Origin: Candidatus Moraniibacteriota bacterium
GTDB lineage: Bacteria > Patescibacteriota > Minisyncoccia > Moranbacterales > UBA1568
NCBI GenBank assembly: GCA_028688415.1
Contig: JAQTYF010000001.1
Location: 144,627-208,626, forward strand
DNA: 64,000 bases
Direction of reading: 5' to 3'
Positions within the stretch are counted from its first letter, which is position 1. The number at the start of each line of letters is the position of its first letter. Shown here piece after piece: positions 12,202 through 26,145 of the stretch. The notes under the pieces were generated by a model. That model ran no database searches. It was given only the letters and a program-made list of their open reading frames with translations, and was not told the DNA's origin. The translations under genes and the position numbers were made by a program.

Positions 12202-12780
12202 ATGAATAATAAAGACGGATCAATTGATAATACAACTCTTTTTAAAAAATGTGATTTCTCAGATTTCAAGAAAGTACTTATTAGAATAAAACCGTCAGAA
12301 AGATTTGGAGGAATAGGCTTGTTTGCTATGAGGGATCTTGGAAAAGGGATGATGTTCGCAAAATGGGAACTTATGAATGAAGATCTTTTCTTTTCCTGGG
12401 ATGATTTTGAAAAAATTGATGAGGAATCCAAAGAAACTGTTCTGGATTTTTGTGCTGAGGCGGAAAATGGCTTCTATGCACCAACTGATATAAATTATAT
12501 ATCACTCCCTTGGCACATGAACCACTGTTGTGATGGAAACGTAGGATTTAATGAAAATGGTGATTTTATAACTATCAAAGACGTGAAAAAAGGAGAAGAA
12601 CTTTTCTATGATTATGGTTTGGTAATGTCGAATTCGAGATATAAGCTTGATTGTAAGTGCGGATCAGAAAATTGTCGAAAGATAATTACAGGTGATGATT
12701 GGAAAAATATCAATTTTCAGAAAGAAAATTATCAGTATATGTCTCCAGAAATAAAGGAGATGATAGATTCAATAAAATAA
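12202..12780 (+). CDS. SET-domain protein (putative protein-lysine methyltransferase)
   Basis: NHCCDGN (NHSCxPN motif), ELFYDYG (ELxxDY), and post-SET cysteines CKCGSENCRK. Confidence 0.7.
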   Translation: MNNKDGSIDNTTLFKKCDFSDFKKVLIRIKPSERFGGIGLFAMRDLGKGMMFAKWELMNEDLFFSWDDFEKIDEESKETVLDFCAEAENGFYAPTDINYISLPWHMNHCCDGNVGFNENGDFITIKDVKKGEELFYDYGLVMSNSRYKLDCKCGSENCRKIITGDDWKNINFQKENYQYMSPEIKEMIDSIK

Positions 12781-12787
12781 AAAAAAT

Positions 12788-14512
12788 ATGGATTTTAATA
12801 TAATTACGAACAGTGAGATTTGTATTGCGAATACACAACAATACTTAACAGGACTCGTCTATTATTCTCATTTTCCGATGATCATACTGTCTTTATTTTT
12901 TGGATTTTTTGTATTTTTAAAAAATAAAAGTTCGTTAGCGTCAAAATGTTTACTGGGTATTACGTTCTTCTTTTCTTTATGGCTTGTTTTTGATTTTATT
13001 TTGTGGAAAAGTAGCAATAGTAGTTTGCTTATGTTTTCTTGGGCTATACTAGGTGTATTTGAAGCACTCTTTTTCATTCTAGGTTTATATTTTATATATA
13101 CATTCATTGATAAAAAAGATGTTTCCAATAGTATAAAATTCATTTTTTTACTTCTTTCTTTGCCAGTTCTCTTTCTGACTCCAACGACATTTAACTTATC
13201 AAATTTTGATATCATAAATTGTGTTCCCGTTGAATCAGGGATATCTTTGGACTACGTTATTTCTTTGAAATTGATTATTTTATTGTGGATTTTTATTCTG
13301 TTGATAGTGAAATACCGGAAGCCTCCTGTAGACATATCAAGATTACAAATTTTTCTGTTAGGTTTAGGTATAATGTTGTTTCTATCTTCGTATTTTGTTT
13401 TGTCTTACGTTTCTGATTATTTGTACAATGCAGGTTATGAATGGGGGTATCAGGTTGAACAGGGTGGAATTCTCGCTATGGGTATTTTTCTTGGGTTTCT
13501 TAGTTATCTCATCGTTAAATTCAAGGCATTTGATATCAAACTGATCGGAGCACAAGCGTTGGTGTTAACACAATTTGCCCTTATTAGCTCAATGTTCTTT
13601 TTTGCCACGGTACTTATAAGTCGCGTCCTCATTGGAGTGACACTCTTTGGTACGACTATTGCTGGTTGGTATCTGATCCGATCAGTGAAGGCAGAAATCA
13701 AACGCAAGGAAGAGCTCGAAAAGATATCGCATACACTGATGGTGGCGAATGAACGATTGAAAGAGCTCGATGCCGCCAAATCAGAATTCATCTCTATTGC
13801 ATCACACCAGCTCCGTACACCGCTCACGGCTATCAAAGGTTACCTCTCACTCTTGCTCGAGGGCTCCTATGGGCCAGTCTCTCCTCAGGTACTCGATATT
13901 CTGAACAAACTCTACGGTGTGAACAATCGTCTCGTCCATCTCGTGGAGGATCTGCTCAATGTCTCTCGTATCGAAGCAGGGCGTATCCAATACAGTTTTG
14001 CTCCGACACAGATCGAGCCTATCCTCGTTGAACTCGTCGATATGTTCCTTTCTCCAGCTCAAGAAAAGAATCTGACTATTGATATCCATCTCTCCAAGCA
14101 TCCGCTCCCTCTCATCACGATGGATCCAAACAAAATCAAAGAAGTGGTGTCCAACCTCATCGACAATGCAGTGAAATACACCAAAGTAGGTGGTGTGACA
14201 GTCACACTCCAGAACACGCCTGAGGTCGCCCGTATCATCATCTCGGATACTGGTATCGGTATTCACGAAAGTGACAAGAAGAACCTCTTCCAGAAATTCC
14301 TTCGAAGCAAGGAAACAACGAAAATGGTAGTCTCTGGAGCGGGTCTCGGTCTCTACGTCGGCAAGAGTTTTATCGAAGCACACGGAGGCAAGATCTGGGC
14401 AGAATCCGATGGTCCAGATAGAGGCTCTCGCTTCATCATCGAACTCCCGATCAAAAACACTCATATTCAGATCGGTACGTCTGATGAACCTACTTCTGTC
14501 GAAAAAGAGTAA
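12788..14512 (+). CDS. membrane sensor histidine kinase (multi-TM N-terminus, HisKA + HATPase_c)
   Basis: H-box SHQLRTPLTAIKGYLSLL; N, G1 and G2 boxes (DNAVKYT, DTGIGI, GAGLGL). GC rises in the kinase-domain half. Confidence 0.85.
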   Translation: MDFNIITNSEICIANTQQYLTGLVYYSHFPMIILSLFFGFFVFLKNKSSLASKCLLGITFFFSLWLVFDFILWKSSNSSLLMFSWAILGVFEALFFILGLYFIYTFIDKKDVSNSIKFIFLLLSLPVLFLTPTTFNLSNFDIINCVPVESGISLDYVISLKLIILLWIFILLIVKYRKPPVDISRLQIFLLGLGIMLFLSSYFVLSYVSDYLYNAGYEWGYQVEQGGILAMGIFLGFLSYLIVKFKAFDIKLIGAQALVLTQFALISSMFFFATVLISRVLIGVTLFGTTIAGWYLIRSVKAEIKRKEELEKISHTLMVANERLKELDAAKSEFISIASHQLRTPLTAIKGYLSLLLEGSYGPVSPQVLDILNKLYGVNNRLVHLVEDLLNVSRIEAGRIQYSFAPTQIEPILVELVDMFLSPAQEKNLTIDIHLSKHPLPLITMDPNKIKEVVSNLIDNAVKYTKVGGVTVTLQNTPEVARIIISDTGIGIHESDKKNLFQKFLRSKETTKMVVSGAGLGLYVGKSFIEAHGGKIWAESDGPDRGSRFIIELPIKNTHIQIGTSDEPTSVEKE

Positions 14513-19887: not shown

Positions 19888-20010
19888 ATTTTATGCTATA
19901 ATTACTTGTCGAGGAATGTTGCAATGATAAGTTGTGTTTATTTTAGATTACATTAAATCCTTGAAAAGTAAAGCTTTGTTCTCGTAGAAGTAGAAATTAG
20001 TCTTATATGA

Positions 20011-20180
20011 GCAAGAGTTTCATCGAAGCACACGGAGGCAAGATCTGGGCAGAATCCGATGGTCCAGACAAAGGATCGCGATTTATCATCGAACTCCCGA
20101 TCAAAAACACTCATATTCAGATCGGTACCTCTGATCAACTAGCAGAAGCGAATGGCAGAGAAGTTGAAAAAGAAAAGTAA
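20011..20180 (+). pseudogene. remnant of a histidine-kinase 3' end (last ~45 codons), homologous to 14361-14488
   Basis: 128 bp ~92% identical to the 3' end of the HK gene; encodes SFIEAHGGKIWAESDGPDKGSRFIIELPIKNTHIQIGTSD with no upstream ORF (stops in frame). Confidence 0.7.
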
Positions 20181-20259: not shown

Positions 20260-21090
20260 ATGCCAAAGATTCTTTTCGTCGAAGATGATCCATTTATTGC
20301 TGAAATTTATAAGAAAAAATTTGCGAGCTCTGGTTTTGATGTGCTCAATGTCATAACTGGGAAATCAGCACTCAAGGAAGCTCTCGAACAGAAATTCGAT
20401 TTGATATTGCTTGATCTCGTGATCCCAGAACTGAGCGGTACAGAAGTGCTTCGTGAATTACGTCACAATCCTGAATACGATCCGAATATGAAAATTGTTG
20501 TGTTCAGTAACCTGAGCTCACAAGAAGATCGTGATGAGTGTCTTGGTCTCGGTGCCAATGGATTTATCTCCAAGACAGAATTTTCTCCATCGGAAGTTGT
20601 CGTCGAAGTCAATCGCTTCCTGAGTCAATTCAGTGAACAGGCCAAGAATTCTGCTCGTTTCGAAAAACAAGGTACAGCAGAACATGAAGATGCTCCGGTA
20701 GTAGAGGGAAAAAAGATTCTCTTTGTTGAAGATGAGGCAGTGTTTATCGATATGTTTGGCAAGCGACTCCGAGATGAAGGATATGTCGTGACGACATGTC
20801 GTGACGGTGTCTCTGGACTACAGGCAGCACTTGATGGGACATTTGATCTCGTGATTTCAGATGTGATGATGCCAGGAATGGATGGTCGCGAACTCGTGAT
20901 GAAGTTGAAAGAAGCAGAATCAGAAAACAATACTCCGATATTTCTGTTCTCCGCATCACTCGACGATAGAGATGTTCAGGCACTTATTGATTCCAAGATT
21001 GCCGAGGGAGTATTTCTCAAGACACAAATCACTCCTAGTGAACTCACTTATGCCGTCAATGATTTTTTCAAGGAGCAATCAGAGAAATAA
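20260..21090 (+). CDS. response regulator with tandem receiver domains (REC-REC), no output domain
   Basis: Two CheY-like modules (ILFVEDD...LILLDLVIP and ILFVEDE...LVISDVMMPGMDG) with conserved Asp/Lys positions. Confidence 0.8.
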   Translation: MPKILFVEDDPFIAEIYKKKFASSGFDVLNVITGKSALKEALEQKFDLILLDLVIPELSGTEVLRELRHNPEYDPNMKIVVFSNLSSQEDRDECLGLGANGFISKTEFSPSEVVVEVNRFLSQFSEQAKNSARFEKQGTAEHEDAPVVEGKKILFVEDEAVFIDMFGKRLRDEGYVVTTCRDGVSGLQAALDGTFDLVISDVMMPGMDGRELVMKLKEAESENNTPIFLFSASLDDRDVQALIDSKIAEGVFLKTQITPSELTYAVNDFFKEQSEK

Positions 21091-21164
21091 ATAACGATGT
21101 ACGTATATATTGCGTAGTTATAGTTCCTTATAAATTTTCCACTTTTCAGATACGGAGGTTAAGA

Positions 21165-21835
21165 ATGTATAATCCCGAGTCATTATATGATGTTAGCGAA
21201 GAGTACATCCGAGAGAGTCAGATACTTGATTCAAAAAACAGGCCAATCTGTTTGGTTTGGGTGAACGGTCAACAATTCAATTTTTATGTTGGACCAGACG
21301 CGCATGGATTTATTTTTGAGGATGAGGAGGGCGAGTACATCAACGTTGGGAATGAGAAGAGGTGGTGGCGCGGAACATTAGAGCCAATTCCTAATATTCT
21401 GAGACCCGACAGATTGAATGAGTTTGGGTTTTGTTCTATCAAGCCGGATGCCTTTGAAAGAGGCTTGGCTGAATTCATCAGGGCAGAAATTGAGTCGATG
21501 GGACTTGAAATTATTGGAAAAAAAGCGGTGTTAATTGAAAAGTCAGAATTATTTCGGCTTTACCCGTACTTTTTTGAATCCGAGTGGGAATCAGTTTTGA
21601 TAAAGTACTTTTGCTCGGCACCAACATTGTTTATGATTCTCAGAGGCAATCAGTGACAGAAAATCTTCTCAAGCTGAGAAAAGCAATGAGACTGAAATTT
21701 AGGAAGTCTGAAGAACACCCGATTCGAAACATGTTCCATTGCTCAGATTCACAACTGGAGGCTATTCGCGAAGCGAGTATATTTTTTGGAGCAGAGGAAT
21801 TACTTAAATTGGTCGGTTGTTCCGAAGACCTGTAG
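21165..21835 (+). pseudogene. nucleoside-diphosphate-kinase-like gene with ~90-aa N-terminal extension, interrupted by a -1 frameshift near 21645-21656
   Basis: Frame A has FCSIKPDAFERGL...GLEIIGKK...YFCSAPTLFMILRG (NDK IIKPD, SGP..V.EG). Frame B has PIRNMFHCSDSQLEAIREASIFF (NDK N.IHGSDS...AxREIxxFF). The two frames overlap 21584-21656. Confidence 0.5.
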
Positions 21836-21887: not shown

Positions 21888-23249
21888 ATGGAGAATTTAT
21901 TTTTTCTAATAGGAGGTAGTTTTTTAATTATATCAATATTTTGGCTCTTAAAAATTTTAAAGAGTTTTTTTTGGATTAAAAATAGCGCTGTTAATAATAT
22001 TATTTTTAACAGCGTTGATAATAACATCCGATTCTTTATTTTAATACCCGTACTTGATGAAACAGCCATATTGGAGGATACAGTTAAATATTTTTTAAAG
22101 ATTTCTCGGGTTTTTAAAGGTTCTAAAATAATTATTATTACTACAGAAAAGGAGTATCGATTTAATCACTCTGGAAGTAAGAATGATACTGTTGCTTTAT
22201 CAAAATCATTAGAGGGGCAATTTAAGGATGTAGTACATGTGCATTATCCGGATGTTGATGGCAAAATGGCACATCAGGTAAATTACGCTGTTAATTTCGT
22301 AAAAAATAACTTAGATAAAAAGGACTTTTTTGCTCTTTATAATGCAGACTCTAGGCCTGATATTAGAACATTTAGCTGGATTAATAATTTCCAACTCAAT
22401 AAACGGCATGGCAATTCTTCAGAAGTATTTCAACAGTATGGGAATTACCTTGGAAACTATTTAAAAATTGTGTCTATGCCCAATTTTTTTGAGAAAGCAA
22501 TTTTAGTCTCTGCATCATTGTGGCAAAATAGATGGAGCATTGGTTTTGAAATACCACATTCCTTGAATCAACTCAAAAAAAGAGAGAGGGGCAATTTTTT
22601 CTCCTTTCCAATGAATTATTGTATTGGGCACGGACTCTTTTTCTCGTGCAGAATTTACGATAAGGTTAGGGGTTTTTCTGAGAATATGCACAATGAAGAT
22701 GCTATTTTTGGTCTGAAGTTAAGTTATTATCAAGATACCATTGTCCCAATTCCATTTTTTGATGAAGCCTTCTCCCCGGAGAGTGTAAAGAGTTTATTTT
22801 TCCAAAAAGTCAACTGGTTTTTTGGACCACTGCAATCTTTTGAATACTATTCCCAAATAATAAAAGATGATCATTCGGTGAGAAAGAGTCGTTTGTTAGT
22901 GCTTACTTTAAAACTATTTAGCCATGCTGTTTATTGGATTTTCGGGCCGCTTATGATGATGTTTCTTTTTATCTATGCATTATTGTCAGAAACAGCGGCA
23001 ATTTGGCTTTTCTTTAATTTAACTTTTATTTCCTTTTTTATAATTCCAAATTTCTTTTCTTGGTTAATTACGCGGAATAGAATAATTGCCAGTGAGATAC
23101 CAGCAATTATTTTTTATTTATTTGTGGGGAGCCTTTTTTTCTATGCGTTGCACGGTCTCGCCGGATGTTTATCCCTATGGCGCTATCTCGGTCACATAAT
23201 GTTTGGGCAACCACTTATTCAAAAGAATAAAACTGCGTTGTACAAGTAA
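21888..23249 (+). CDS. membrane-embedded family-2 glycosyltransferase (processive, QxxRW type)
   Basis: N-terminal TM, LIPVLDE, NADSRPD (DxD), QNRW (QxxRW), several C-terminal TM helices. Confidence 0.7.
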   Translation: MENLFFLIGGSFLIISIFWLLKILKSFFWIKNSAVNNIIFNSVDNNIRFFILIPVLDETAILEDTVKYFLKISRVFKGSKIIIITTEKEYRFNHSGSKNDTVALSKSLEGQFKDVVHVHYPDVDGKMAHQVNYAVNFVKNNLDKKDFFALYNADSRPDIRTFSWINNFQLNKRHGNSSEVFQQYGNYLGNYLKIVSMPNFFEKAILVSASLWQNRWSIGFEIPHSLNQLKKRERGNFFSFPMNYCIGHGLFFSCRIYDKVRGFSENMHNEDAIFGLKLSYYQDTIVPIPFFDEAFSPESVKSLFFQKVNWFFGPLQSFEYYSQIIKDDHSVRKSRLLVLTLKLFSHAVYWIFGPLMMMFLFIYALLSETAAIWLFFNLTFISFFIIPNFFSWLITRNRIIASEIPAIIFYLFVGSLFFYALHGLAGCLSLWRYLGHIMFGQPLIQKNKTALYK

Positions 23250-23687
23250 TTATTTTTGGCTGTAACCTACTAAATGGTGACTATTTTTTTTGAGGATAGC
23301 GAAAAGGCTAGGAAGATATTCAACAGTTTTTATGTTGATAGGTATTTTATCTATAGATACCCATTGATGCTGGTCGTGATCTTCTTTATTTAAGAGTATA
23401 TTAGTCTCATTGCATACGCCAATAAATATAAGACGAATAAATTGTTTGTTCTTTTTTCTATCGATATTTGATGTGTAATGAAACAGGCTAAGGTTTTGAA
23501 TATCAATCCCTGTTTCTTCTTTGGTTTCTCGAATAGCTCCTTCTTCTGGATCTTCCCCGTCGTCAAGTGTTCCTCCTGGGATATCCCAAAGACCAGGTAG
23601 AGTGTCCTCGCTAAGTGATCTCCGAATAAGGAGCACCTCTCGGTTCCCATTGAAGAGAACAGCATGTACAATTATTCCTTTGTCCAT
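23250..23687 (-). CDS. Nudix hydrolase
   Basis: Nudix box GGTLDDGEDPEEGAIRETKEETGI. Confidence 0.75.
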   Translation of the reverse strand: MDKGIIVHAVLFNGNREVLLIRRSLSEDTLPGLWDIPGGTLDDGEDPEEGAIRETKEETGIDIQNLSLFHYTSNIDRKKNKQFIRLIFIGVCNETNILLNKEDHDQHQWVSIDKIPINIKTVEYLPSLFAILKKNSHHLVGYSQK

Positions 23688-23776
23688 ATTAGTTAAAATT
23701 ATTTTTATTACACTATTAATTCATTGACTTTATTCATAAACTATAGCATAGTGTAGAGTATCCTGGAATAAACCAA

Positions 23777-24130
23777 ATGGATATTGATTTAGCAAGAAAT
23801 TTTTGTAAGGAGGCATTTATAAAATTTGAATTGTGGGGCTTTTTCGACAGAAGTGGTAATGTCAAAAAGTTTTCAAATGATGTACACAAAGAAGTTGTCT
23901 ATGGATGTGAACAGCGACGGCCCTTAGAAAGGATGCATATAAATTTTAAGGGAGATGTTATTTTGTGCTGTATGGATTGGAAATGGCAGCATAAATTAGG
24001 AAATGTGAACGAGAGGTCTTTAGAAGAAATATGGAATTCTGAGATTTATAATGAATATCGTAAGTCTATTTACAATAATGGATCAGGAACACGAACAGGT
24101 CTATGTAAGAAATGCAAGTTATCGTTATGA
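23777..24130 (+). CDS. SPASM-domain-only fragment (C-terminal part of a radical-SAM maturase); possible gene remnant
   Basis: CEQRRPLERMHINFKGDVILCCMDWKWQHKLGNVNERSLEEIWNSEIY...GLCKKCK matches the SPASM pattern (C..G.v.pC...lGNi...sl.eIW...C..C). No radical-SAM core upstream. Confidence 0.45.
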   Translation: MDIDLARNFCKEAFIKFELWGFFDRSGNVKKFSNDVHKEVVYGCEQRRPLERMHINFKGDVILCCMDWKWQHKLGNVNERSLEEIWNSEIYNEYRKSIYNNGSGTRTGLCKKCKLSL

Positions 24131-24768
24131 TGATTTCATTTGATGGCAATGTTTATGTGGGAAAAACGACTTTAATTAAGTCATTATCTCAGAGATATGG
24201 TTTTTCTACCATTGATGAACACTCTTTTTTTATTAATGATATTCAACAGAAAGATTATTATGAGAATGAGTATGTTAACACGCAGGCACGATATCTTGAT
24301 GTAGATATCCAGAGAGGAAAACTTCTTAGAAATGGCATCAATCTTTTAGACAGGAGTTTTGTTTCTGTAAGTGCCCATGTTTATGCTATTTATAAATTGG
24401 GGTTGGTTGATATAAGAAGTTCATATCTTGAACTCTTGGTATCTAAGGTGGGGGAAATATTAATACCAGACATATTCGTTTTTGTAAGTTGTGAGTATGA
24501 GACTTCGCGTGCAAGATGTTTTGAGAGTGGTAATAGAAAACAAACGGGGGATTTATATCTTTCCGAACAATATTTCAGGTTCGTGAAAATATTTAATGTT
24601 AATTTTATCTCGATGGTTAATGGCCATGTTATTGATACAGAGAGCATCTTTACGGATACATCGTGTGTTGATATGTACAATCGAATTGTTCTCAATTCAA
24701 GAAATAAAAAAATAACAAAAGACACAGTAGCGATGATTGATAACATTCGAAACTGTCTTGATCTATAA
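24112..24768 (+). CDS. P-loop kinase, deoxynucleoside/nucleotide-kinase-like
   Basis: Walker A FDGNVYVGKTTLIKSL; LLDRSFVS resembles the dNK/dGK ERS motif. Confidence 0.5.
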   Translation: MQVIVMMISFDGNVYVGKTTLIKSLSQRYGFSTIDEHSFFINDIQQKDYYENEYVNTQARYLDVDIQRGKLLRNGINLLDRSFVSVSAHVYAIYKLGLVDIRSSYLELLVSKVGEILIPDIFVFVSCEYETSRARCFESGNRKQTGDLYLSEQYFRFVKIFNVNFISMVNGHVIDTESIFTDTSCVDMYNRIVLNSRNKKITKDTVAMIDNIRNCLDL

Positions 24769-24861: not shown

Positions 24862-26145
24862 ATGAAGGAGAAAATCATGAGTATAACCTTTGGACTTGAT
24901 TTTGGAACTACGAACTCTGTTTTGGCAATTTTGCAAAATGGCCAAGTAAAAGTTGCGAGTATTGATCCGAGCGGGGCTGTAGAAGAAACCCTGAAATCAG
25001 TTCTTTTCTTCGACGAAGAAAATTATGTGGCCGTTGGTCAAGAGGCTATCAACCAATACGTTGGTTACGGTGGTGTGTACGGTCGCTTCATGCAGTCGAT
25101 TAAGGCGTTTTTGCCAAACAAAAGTTTCACTGAGACATATGTTTTTGGTAAGCGTTACGAGATTGAAGATCTGATAGCCTTAATTTTGAAAGCTATCAAA
25201 CATCATGGTGAGCTTTATGTCGGTCACGTTGTGGACACAGTAATGATGGGACGTCCTGTTATTTTTTCGGAGGACAAGGAGTTAGATCTTTTGGCCGAAG
25301 AAAGATTGCGAGCCGCCGCCCTGCGTTCTGGGTTTACGAATATCCATTTCGTATATGAGCCTATTGCTGCTACGCTTGCTTACGAATCACAACTCAAGTC
25401 AGGTGAGGAAAAACTTGTTCTTATGGGTGATTTTGGTGGTGGCACCTCGGATTTTGTTGTTATGCGTCTTTGCGGCCGTGACACGCCGAAAAACAATCGG
25501 AAGGATGATATTCTCTCCATTGGGGGGGTGTATATTGCTGGTGATGCTTTCGATGCTTCTATCATGTGGCACAAAATAGCTAAACACTTCGGCAAAGGGG
25601 CAAAAGTCTATGGTGCCTCGAATCGTCAAATTCTTGATATGCCGATTTGGATTCCGCAGACACTTTGTCGGTGGCATATGATTCCGCAGCTTCGTAGCAA
25701 GAAAACACTTCAGATTATCCAATCTCTTCATGGTGTATCTGACGAAGATCGGAAGGCTTTGGAGAATCTGCGTACGCTCATTATGGAAAATCTTGGGTAC
25801 TTGCTGTTTAGGGCCATTGAAAAAGCGAAGCGGGAGTTGTCTGATAACGAATCTGCCATTATTGAATTTTCCGAGAAGGGGGTTGTAATTCACGAGGAAA
25901 TTACAAGGGAGGAATTTGAAATCATGGCTGACGATAACTTTCAGAAGATTAACGCTTGTGTAGATGAAACATTGGTTCGCGCAGGCGTGTCTTTGTCAGA
26001 TATCGATACCGTCCTGTTGACCGGCGGGTCATCGTTTATTCCAAGAATCCGAAGAATTTTTTCGAGTAAATTCGGAGAGGAAAAAATAATATCGATTGAT
26101 GCGTTTATGAGCGTAGCCTATGGGCTCGGCCTCTGCGCATCATAG
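24862..26145 (+). CDS. Hsp70-family ATPase, nucleotide-binding domain only (YegD-like)
   Basis: FGLDFGTTNS (phosphate 1), GDFGGGTSDF (phosphate 2), LLTGGSSFIPRIRR (adenosine motif); no substrate-binding domain. Confidence 0.65.
   Translation: MKEKIMSITFGLDFGTTNSVLAILQNGQVKVASIDPSGAVEETLKSVLFFDEENYVAVGQEAINQYVGYGGVYGRFMQSIKAFLPNKSFTETYVFGKRYEIEDLIALILKAIKHHGELYVGHVVDTVMMGRPVIFSEDKELDLLAEERLRAAALRSGFTNIHFVYEPIAATLAYESQLKSGEEKLVLMGDFGGGTSDFVVMRLCGRDTPKNNRKDDILSIGGVYIAGDAFDASIMWHKIAKHFGKGAKVYGASNRQILDMPIWIPQTLCRWHMIPQLRSKKTLQIIQSLHGVSDEDRKALENLRTLIMENLGYLLFRAIEKAKRELSDNESAIIEFSEKGVVIHEEITREEFEIMADDNFQKINACVDETLVRAGVSLSDIDTVLLTGGSSFIPRIRRIFSSKFGEEKIISIDAFMSVAYGLGLCAS

Follow-up and report, generated by a model that had tools for sequence, protein, structure and literature searches.

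A nucleoside diphosphate kinase-like gene in two reading frames

The 64,000-nt stretch of DNA analysed here, referred to below as the window, comes from Candidatus Moraniibacteriota bacterium (contig JAQTYF010000001.1, positions 144,627 to 208,626 of the forward strand) and includes a gene for a nucleoside diphosphate kinase (NDK)-like protein with an additional N-terminal domain. The gene is on the forward strand and is divided between two overlapping open reading frames (ORFs). ORF1 (21165..21656) specifies a 163-aa product consisting of the N-terminal domain (N-domain) and the first half of the NDK domain, and it ends in a TGA stop codon at 21654-21656. ORF2, which is in the -1 frame, runs from a GTG codon at 21584 to its stop at 21833-21835 (21584..21835), encodes 83 aa that include the rest of the NDK domain and overlaps ORF1 by 73 nt. 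The Pfam family for NDK, PF00334, has a gathering cut-off of 27 bits and matches residues 89-162 of the ORF1 product over profile positions 4-77 (33.8 bits). It matches the ORF2 product over profile positions 99-134 with 20.5 bits, which is under the cut-off when that product is taken alone. When the two products are joined at the stop, a single unbroken match results that covers profile positions 4-134 of 135 and scores 54.8 bits. Nowhere in the window gene is the whole NDK domain encoded in one uninterrupted frame. The initial annotation of this DNA had described a divergent NDK core that follows about 90 aa of unfamiliar sequence, is split over two overlapping frames with the stop at 21654-21656 and the second frame open from 21584, and retains the motifs IKPD, SAP and HCSDS. 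All of these features were recovered, and the first 86-88 residues of the protein match no Pfam family. That annotation saw no other ndk in the window, and tblastn searches of the window with the Ndk proteins of E. coli and B. subtilis likewise returned no further ndk.

Translation from ATG 21165 is backed by alignment of the protein with the N-termini of its homologues, and a Shine-Dalgarno-like GGAGG (21155..21159) lies 5 nt ahead of this codon on the same strand. In the NCBI annotation the gene starts at GTG 21261, has a 131-aa product and is named 'nucleoside-diphosphate kinase'. The N-domain takes up residues 1-86 (21165..21422) and was modelled with AlphaFold2 (AF2) as a short helix followed by a five-strand beta meander. 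The first half of the NDK-like domain (residues 87-163, strands beta1-beta3, 21423..21653) is read in the frame of the N-domain and carries K93 (within IKPD), Y133 and W141. The second half, residues 164-224 of the repaired protein, is read from 21653..21835 in the -1 frame and holds R173, R177, N190, the catalytic H193 (within HCSDS), D196 and E204. The NDK-like gene is among the few window genes with a perfect GGAGG. Many window genes have a TATAAT-like box no more than about 20 nt ahead of their start codon (the 20 nt upstream of 34 long ORFs were examined), a spacing that suggests that the mRNAs of this organism have short leaders or none.

The frame breaks within ggcaatca/gtgaca (21643..21656, forward strand), where the TGA at 21654-21656 overlaps the GTG of the downstream frame at 21653-21655. 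A tblastn search with the intact homologue from locus L005 places the break at 21647, and the interval for the deletion is approximately 21647-21652. In the family alignment (A1), frame 0 of the window tracks the family through ...FMILRGN and the -1 frame tracks it from VTENLL... on, while the homologues read G-x-S/Q-V-T across the junction in a single frame. By this alignment, the missing base belongs between the G159-N160 codons and those for V-T-E. The split is attributed to a 1-nt deletion because intact single-frame relatives of 196-251 aa exist, and the shift meets a stop immediately because the Val-Thr codons GTG ACA hide a TGA. The shift lies within ggcaatcagtgaca, in which the longest run is 2 nt. 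An alternative genetic code with UGA read as Gly was considered and rejected, since read-through in frame 0 gives a non-NDK sequence with several further TGAs (by hand translation) and other genes are normal under table 11.

A rare family of two-domain proteins

Homologues of the N-terminal extension were looked for in other genomes, as the initial annotation had proposed, and were found, mostly as intact two-domain proteins. Among 5.8 billion protein clusters, just 14 relatives were found. Of these, 12 are intact and encoded in a single frame (213-226 aa; 47-71% identity) and share the N-extension and the NDK domain; P0005, assigned at NCBI to Candidatus Moranbacteria, is the truncated product of the window gene itself, and P0014 is another truncated copy. 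The intact homologues match the window gene at E = 1e-100 to 1e-58, far beyond chance. With a profile built from the N-domain only (A2), 31 matches at E <= 1e-3 were obtained among 1.84 billion representative proteins. Some 25 of them measure 196-251 aa and have the domain at their N-terminus. An NDK domain follows the N-domain in all six of those that were scanned, and none of the A2 matches showed the N-domain joined to a different partner. A scan of GTDB representative genomes with two peptide patterns, which reach close relatives only and provide no census, found one locus (L010), in a metagenome-assembled genome (MAG) labelled Bdellovibrionales.

Conservation within the family was assessed from an alignment of 34 intact members, which are 27-69% identical to the window protein (66-69% for P0001-P0004 and at least 27% for the other members). 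Six residues of the N-domain are invariant, D22, R26, G43, G48, R66 and W68, and the window protein has all six. In the NDK part, K93, F136, R177, N190 and H193 are present in 34/34 members. Near-invariant positions are Y133 (33/34), position 173 (R or K in 34/34), an aromatic residue at 141 (32/34), D196 (31/34) and E204 (29/34). On these comparisons the N-domain is the hallmark of a small, rare and conserved family, the members of which are mostly intact. The initial annotation regarded the fused N-domain as unusual for an ndk gene. This holds in that the domain has no match in Pfam, the PDB or BFVD, but the fusion is a family-wide trait and is not peculiar to the window gene.

Other members of the family that seem to be truncated or frameshifted are P0016, P0020 and P0029, each of which comes from a single assembly and reflects either real decay or an assembly error. 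P0020 is a frameshifted P0002-like copy, as its tail is an alternative-frame reading of the conserved FEDENGEYIKVGNEKRWW region.

The AF2 model of the whole protein, based on alignment A1, has a predicted local distance difference test score (pLDDT) of 89.2 and a predicted TM-score of 0.80, and consists of the helix and meander (27-68) followed by an NDK fold at residues 88-218. Foldseek matched the model to NDKs only, with probability 1.0 and 23-32% identity. The best Foldseek E-values were for the NDK of P. horikoshii (32% identity), which is also the best sequence match in the PDB (2cwk, E 5e-17). Within the whole-protein model the N-domain strands are at 27-33, 36-42, 47-53, 56-61 and 64-68 with pLDDT 85-91; when the N-domain was modelled alone, pLDDT was 68.5. 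Foldseek searches with the N-domain gave no significant match in the PDB (best E 0.86) or among the viral structures of BFVD (best E 0.31). The intact L005 homologue scores best against NF001908 among the NCBIfam ndk models, with 55.2 bits against a cut-off of 155 (cut-offs of the ndk equivalogs range from 155 to 287). The C-terminal domain can be placed in the NDK superfamily on its sequence, fold and catalytic residues. Since this homologue falls below the equivalog cut-offs, the family is described here as NDK-like and not as the housekeeping ndk.

Probable inactivation of the gene and alternative explanations

The locus is probably a recently inactivated two-domain NDK-like gene in an eroding gene cluster, and the proteins of its intact relatives likely depend on the histidine and work with a glycosyltransferase family 2 (GT2)-like synthase encoded next to them. 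With one base lost, translation from 21165 ends at 21654-21656 after 163 residues, and the resulting product is without helix alpha3, the strand bearing the catalytic His193 and the C-terminal helices. Based on the conservation of K93, Y133, R177, N190 and H193, the intact relatives are most likely still nucleotide phosphotransferases that are phosphorylated on the histidine. Adjacency, and adjacency only, suggests that the NDK-like protein most likely partners the neighbouring synthase, where it would either re-phosphorylate released nucleoside diphosphate or supply nucleoside triphosphate for sugar activation. The frameshift would then be one step in the loss of cluster function, given that both radical S-adenosylmethionine (SAM) genes of the cluster have been deleted as well (see below). 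Loss of NDK is tolerable in bacteria, with adenylate kinase compensating, according to Lu & Inouye 1996 as cited in PMC4508563. Decay as a pseudogene was one of the two explanations offered in the initial annotation and, with a real deletion in an eroding cluster, it is the best reading of the locus.

Several observations weigh against inactivation as described above. After the frameshift, no stop interrupts the 60 codons of the -1 frame, and every residue conserved in the family has been kept. Identity to the closest relatives is 62-66% past the frameshift, which is no lower than the 60-66% of the N-domain. This lack of decay means that the inactivation is very recent or that selection still acts on the second half of the gene. 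The stop overlaps a GTG codon (GTGA) with AGAGG located 6 nt upstream, so that re-initiation is possible. The two losses in the cluster are not obligatorily linked, because the NDK-like gene of locus L002 is intact in the absence of the radical-SAM genes. Finally, it is gene order that suggests the link to the synthase.

Some of these observations could be accommodated if the gene were functional as a split gene, in which a 163-aa protein and a 60-aa protein translated from GTG 21653 by termination-reinitiation reassemble into an active NDK-like domain. The overlap of TGA 21654-56 with GTG 21653-55, the AGAGG 6 nt upstream and the lack of degenerative changes in the downstream part all agree with such an arrangement. 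In the AF2 model the break falls in a loop (161-164) between the strand at 154-160 and the helix at 165-180, and the gene caller used on the Logan contigs predicts a 60-aa gene over the second NDK-like half. Against this, no member of the family has been seen split at this position, and the other truncated members end elsewhere. The GTG, the hidden TGA and the AGAGG are all given by the ancestral codons for R-G...V-T. Motifs resembling a Shine-Dalgarno sequence precede only 3/34 long window ORFs (background 0.11), and the AGAGG carries little weight because such motifs occur in the window at the background rate. A 60-aa fragment with the strand of the catalytic histidine is unlikely to fold alone, and the neighbouring deletion shows that loss of the cluster is under way. 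A functional split gene, the main rival to inactivation, is accordingly considered unlikely.

Alternatively, the frameshift could be an artefact of sequencing or assembly, with the genome holding an intact gene for a 224-aa protein. The difference is of a single base in a MAG, and all of the assemblies apparently derive from one run series (SRR223155xx), as might be expected of an artefact. The same frameshift is nevertheless found on NCBI contig JAQVTP010000002.1 (GCA_028699965.1; locus L001), which differs from the window at one position in 6,396 nt, a G/A single-nucleotide polymorphism at 21007. The identical 131-aa product is encoded on a second NCBI contig (939,379 bp), and the NCBI protein records of this product are MDD2766275.1 and MDD3964840.1. 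The exact 163-aa product of ORF1 is encoded on four per-run Logan assemblies (SRR22315503, 07, 08 and 09; loci L011-L014). The 36 nt around the site are identical in all four Logan contigs, and the site is also the same in L001. Position 21007, which is in a response-regulator gene, distinguishes two haplotypes, with G in the window and L012 and A in L001, L011, L013 and L014. Six assemblies, at least four runs and two haplotypes therefore agree on the frameshift. The initial annotation had suggested a homopolymer error, which fails in the face of this agreement and of the absence of any run longer than 2 nt at the site. Other long window genes that were checked are intact (CTP synthase, class-III aminotransferase, histidine kinase and tRNA synthetases), which indicates that the assembly is not prone to indels. 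Among approximately 15 billion proteins, the closest intact allele is 71% identical and none is closer. Because the assemblies agree, other genes are intact and no closer intact allele was found, the deletion is treated as a real mutation that is fixed in this Candidatus Moranbacteria population, and an artefact is regarded as quite improbable.

The four Logan contigs all end at the same base, window position 20099, which lies inside a histidine-kinase remnant, and this shared end suggests a repeat or a structural variant in the population. This 57-aa ORF (20007-20180) is situated just upstream of the gene for a response regulator with two receiver domains (20260-21090). Of the histidine kinase ATPase domain it encodes no more than the C-terminal tail (HATPase_c profile 80-110), and it seems to be one more remnant of a gene.

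Production of the full-length protein through transcriptional slippage or a programmed -1 ribosomal frameshift can be dismissed as extremely improbable: the overlapping frames and the Shine-Dalgarno-like AGAGG ahead of the stop superficially resemble the RF2 (prfB) recoding site, but a -1 shift is needed here whereas the prfB type is +1 (the +1 frame at the site reads a non-NDK sequence by hand translation), neither 21630-21656 nor the stretch from ILRG to VTEN contains a slippery X XXY YYZ heptamer, no run of A/T is available for slippage, and the shift is not conserved, all 34 aligned homologues being single-frame.

The gene cluster and comparison with known systems

In the window, the NDK-like gene is followed by a gene for a 453-aa membrane GT2-like synthase (21888..23249, forward strand; PF13632, 29.9 bits), which is intact. 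A GT2-like gene is directly downstream of the NDK-like gene in seven lineages, represented by the window and by loci L002, L005, L008, L015, L018 and L019. This adjacency holds in every locus with enough sequence, the sole exception being the decayed locus L004, and it spans NDK-like proteins down to 28% identity. The GC content of the NDK-like loci ranges from 29 to 48%, which makes it unlikely that the linkage reflects only recent shared ancestry. Residues D154, E270-D271 and Q306..W310 are invariant in the GT2-like family. The last of these is read here as resembling the QxxRW motif of processive GT2 synthases. A sequence search of the PDB with the GT2-like protein found no relative.

In loci L005-L009, L015 and L016 the cluster comprises the NDK-like gene and genes for a GT2-like membrane protein (about 450 aa), a NUDIX hydrolase on the opposite strand, a B12-type radical-SAM protein (466-566 aa), a radical SAM/SPASM protein (286-305 aa), a deoxynucleoside kinase (dNK)-like kinase and an Hsp70/actin-like ATPase. 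In the window, the synthase gene is followed by an intact NUDIX hydrolase gene (23250..23687, reverse strand; 145 aa; PF00293, 89.9 bits), the product of which is 59% identical to its L005 orthologue over 144/145 residues. Next is a stub on the forward strand (23753..24130, with an ORF at 23777-24130) that matches only SPASM in Pfam and is the remnant of a radical-SAM/SPASM gene for a protein of about 286-305 aa. The stub aligns by tblastn only to residues 181-305 of the L005 protein, and to residues 175-289 and 176-286 of the L019 and L015 proteins, respectively. The 566-aa B12-type radical-SAM protein of L005 matches nowhere in the 64-kb window by tblastn. The stub and the missing B12-type gene point to a deletion of approximately 2.2 kb between the NUDIX and dNK-like genes, so that the window cluster has two independent lesions, this deletion and the frameshift. 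The dNK-like P-loop kinase gene (24112..24768, forward strand; 218 aa; Pfam dNK, 27.6 bits) is intact and orthologous to those of L005, L015 and L019. The gene for the Hsp70/actin-like ATPase (24862..26145, forward strand; 427 aa; Pfam HSP70, 117 bits) is also intact; its product is PRK11678-like in NCBIfam and 70% identical to that of L005 over 421/424 residues.

Erosion of the cluster has occurred elsewhere. The P0013 lineage (L002 and L003) retains intact NDK-like, GT2-like and NUDIX genes but lacks the dNK-like gene and the two radical-SAM genes, and all that is left of its Hsp70-like gene is a 75-aa tail, which in L002 (10655-10882) is 68% identical to residues 355-427 of the window protein. 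In L004 (542-952), the NDK-like gene breaks off after residue 136, with the rest of it untraceable, and in place of the GT-like gene, which is absent, a NUDIX gene follows. The repeated erosion in the window, L002 and L004 suggests that the function of the cluster is accessory rather than essential. Locus L019 (2524-10390), the NDK-like protein of which is 28% identical, keeps the core cluster in a changed order with two genes added, and contains carbamoyltransferase, NDK-like, GT-like, two radical-SAM, dNK, methyltransferase and NUDIX genes. The added genes are that for the NodU/CmcH-type carbamoyltransferase, which is upstream, and that for the methyltransferase, which is inside the cluster. 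The gene set of L019 looks like a sugar- or nucleotide-tailoring pathway. In L018, the GT-like gene is directly downstream of the NDK-like gene.

Two other identities for the cluster were considered and rejected. PADLOC fitted the cluster to no single defence system and returned only weak, generic matches to different candidate systems (for example, the NUDIX protein to PDC-S07), with none for the NDK-like and GT-like proteins. A locus for a ribosomally synthesized and post-translationally modified peptide was set aside because the cluster has no conserved small precursor ORF; the small ORFs upstream of it are non-homologous between loci and absent from the window. The dNK-like kinase of L005 (13204-13854) has a weak match (E 4.4e-5) to the PADLOC model of VakA, the viperin-associated kinase, which is probably generic P-loop similarity. 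Elsewhere in the window, an ORF at 12202-12780 scores 35.3 bits in Pfam for a SET (lysine methyltransferase) domain and adjoins an intact histidine kinase gene (12788-14512).

Searches of the literature on NDK in the Candidate Phyla Radiation, Patescibacteria or Parcubacteria turned up no account of the family. As far as Pfam, NCBIfam, the PDB, BFVD, PADLOC and this literature show, both the N-domain and the fixed pairing of NDK-like and GT2-like genes are undescribed. The usual companions of the pair are the genes for the B12-type radical-SAM protein, the SPASM radical-SAM protein, the dNK-like kinase, the NUDIX hydrolase and the Hsp70-like ATPase. It is conceivable, though doubtful, that an undescribed pathway is built around the N-domain/NDK-like protein and its GT2-like partner in Moranbacteria and other metagenomic lineages, and that this pathway makes or recycles a modified nucleotide or nucleotide-sugar destined for a glycopolymer of the envelope. 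If so, the N-domain would confer a special substrate on the NDK-like module or dock it to the synthase, and the window would capture the pathway while it is being lost. The nucleotide metabolism of such organisms is minimal, and a dedicated NDK-like module could reveal how nucleotide recycling is tied to the synthesis of their envelope. The value of the locus is in the family, the cluster and a corrected annotation, the window copy itself being probably an ordinary, well-documented pseudogene. The label 'nucleoside-diphosphate kinase' in the public records MDD2766275.1 and MDD3964840.1 is attached to a truncated product without the catalytic histidine, and metabolic reconstructions that credit NDK activity from this gene are wrong.

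Among known systems, NHL beta-propeller blades (PF01436) recall the N-domain in that the weakest matches of the A2 profile (E 2e-5 to 4e-4) are large NHL-repeat proteins, matched repeatedly by profile positions 19-56. In contrast to such blades, the N-domain is a single five-strand meander with no propeller; it has no structural match to them and matches no Pfam family, NHL included, at E <= 10. Fusion of NDK to accessory domains has a precedent in the eukaryotic multidomain NME proteins, since NME5, 7, 8 and 9 combine NDK with Dpy-30, DM10 or thioredoxin domains, and NDK7-type ciliary chains (8g2z, 7ung) are among the PDB matches of the family. The accessory domains of the eukaryotic proteins are unrelated, their setting is the cilium, and they are not known to be linked to a glycosyltransferase. 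The mimivirus NDK (PDB 2b8q, 3b6b) gives the best target-normalised TM-score with the model (0.83-0.84; root-mean-square deviation 2.0 A over 131 columns), and it reportedly also has a shortened Kpn loop, a point attributed to Jeudy et al. 2009. It differs from the family in being a viral, stand-alone enzyme with 24% identity and no N-terminal domain, and its preference for deoxypyrimidines is not transferable to the family on this likeness alone.

In the numbering of the M. tuberculosis NDK (PMC7554756), phosphate is bound by Lys10, Tyr50 and Arg104, the nucleophile is His117, and Arg86 and Thr92 belong to the Kpn loop. K93, Y133, R177, N190 and H193 of the NDK-like family match Lys10, Tyr50, Arg104, Asn and His117 of canonical Ndk (PF00334, EC 2.7.4.6), as alignment to 2cwk and 3vvt shows for the first three, and the N-x-x-H motif with the catalytic histidine is present throughout the family and in the -1 frame of the window gene. 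Several features set the family apart from the canonical enzyme. The position of the base-stacking Phe is held by W141 in the window protein. The Kpn loop is 6-10 residues shorter, with deletions that face 'GATNPxxAxPG' in both hidden Markov model alignments, and Thr92 of GxTxP has no counterpart. R173 may replace Arg86, at a position where the local alignment is ambiguous. Unlike canonical Ndk, the family carries the 86-aa N-terminal domain, which in the window copy is followed by the frameshift, and its gene is paired with a GT2-like gene.

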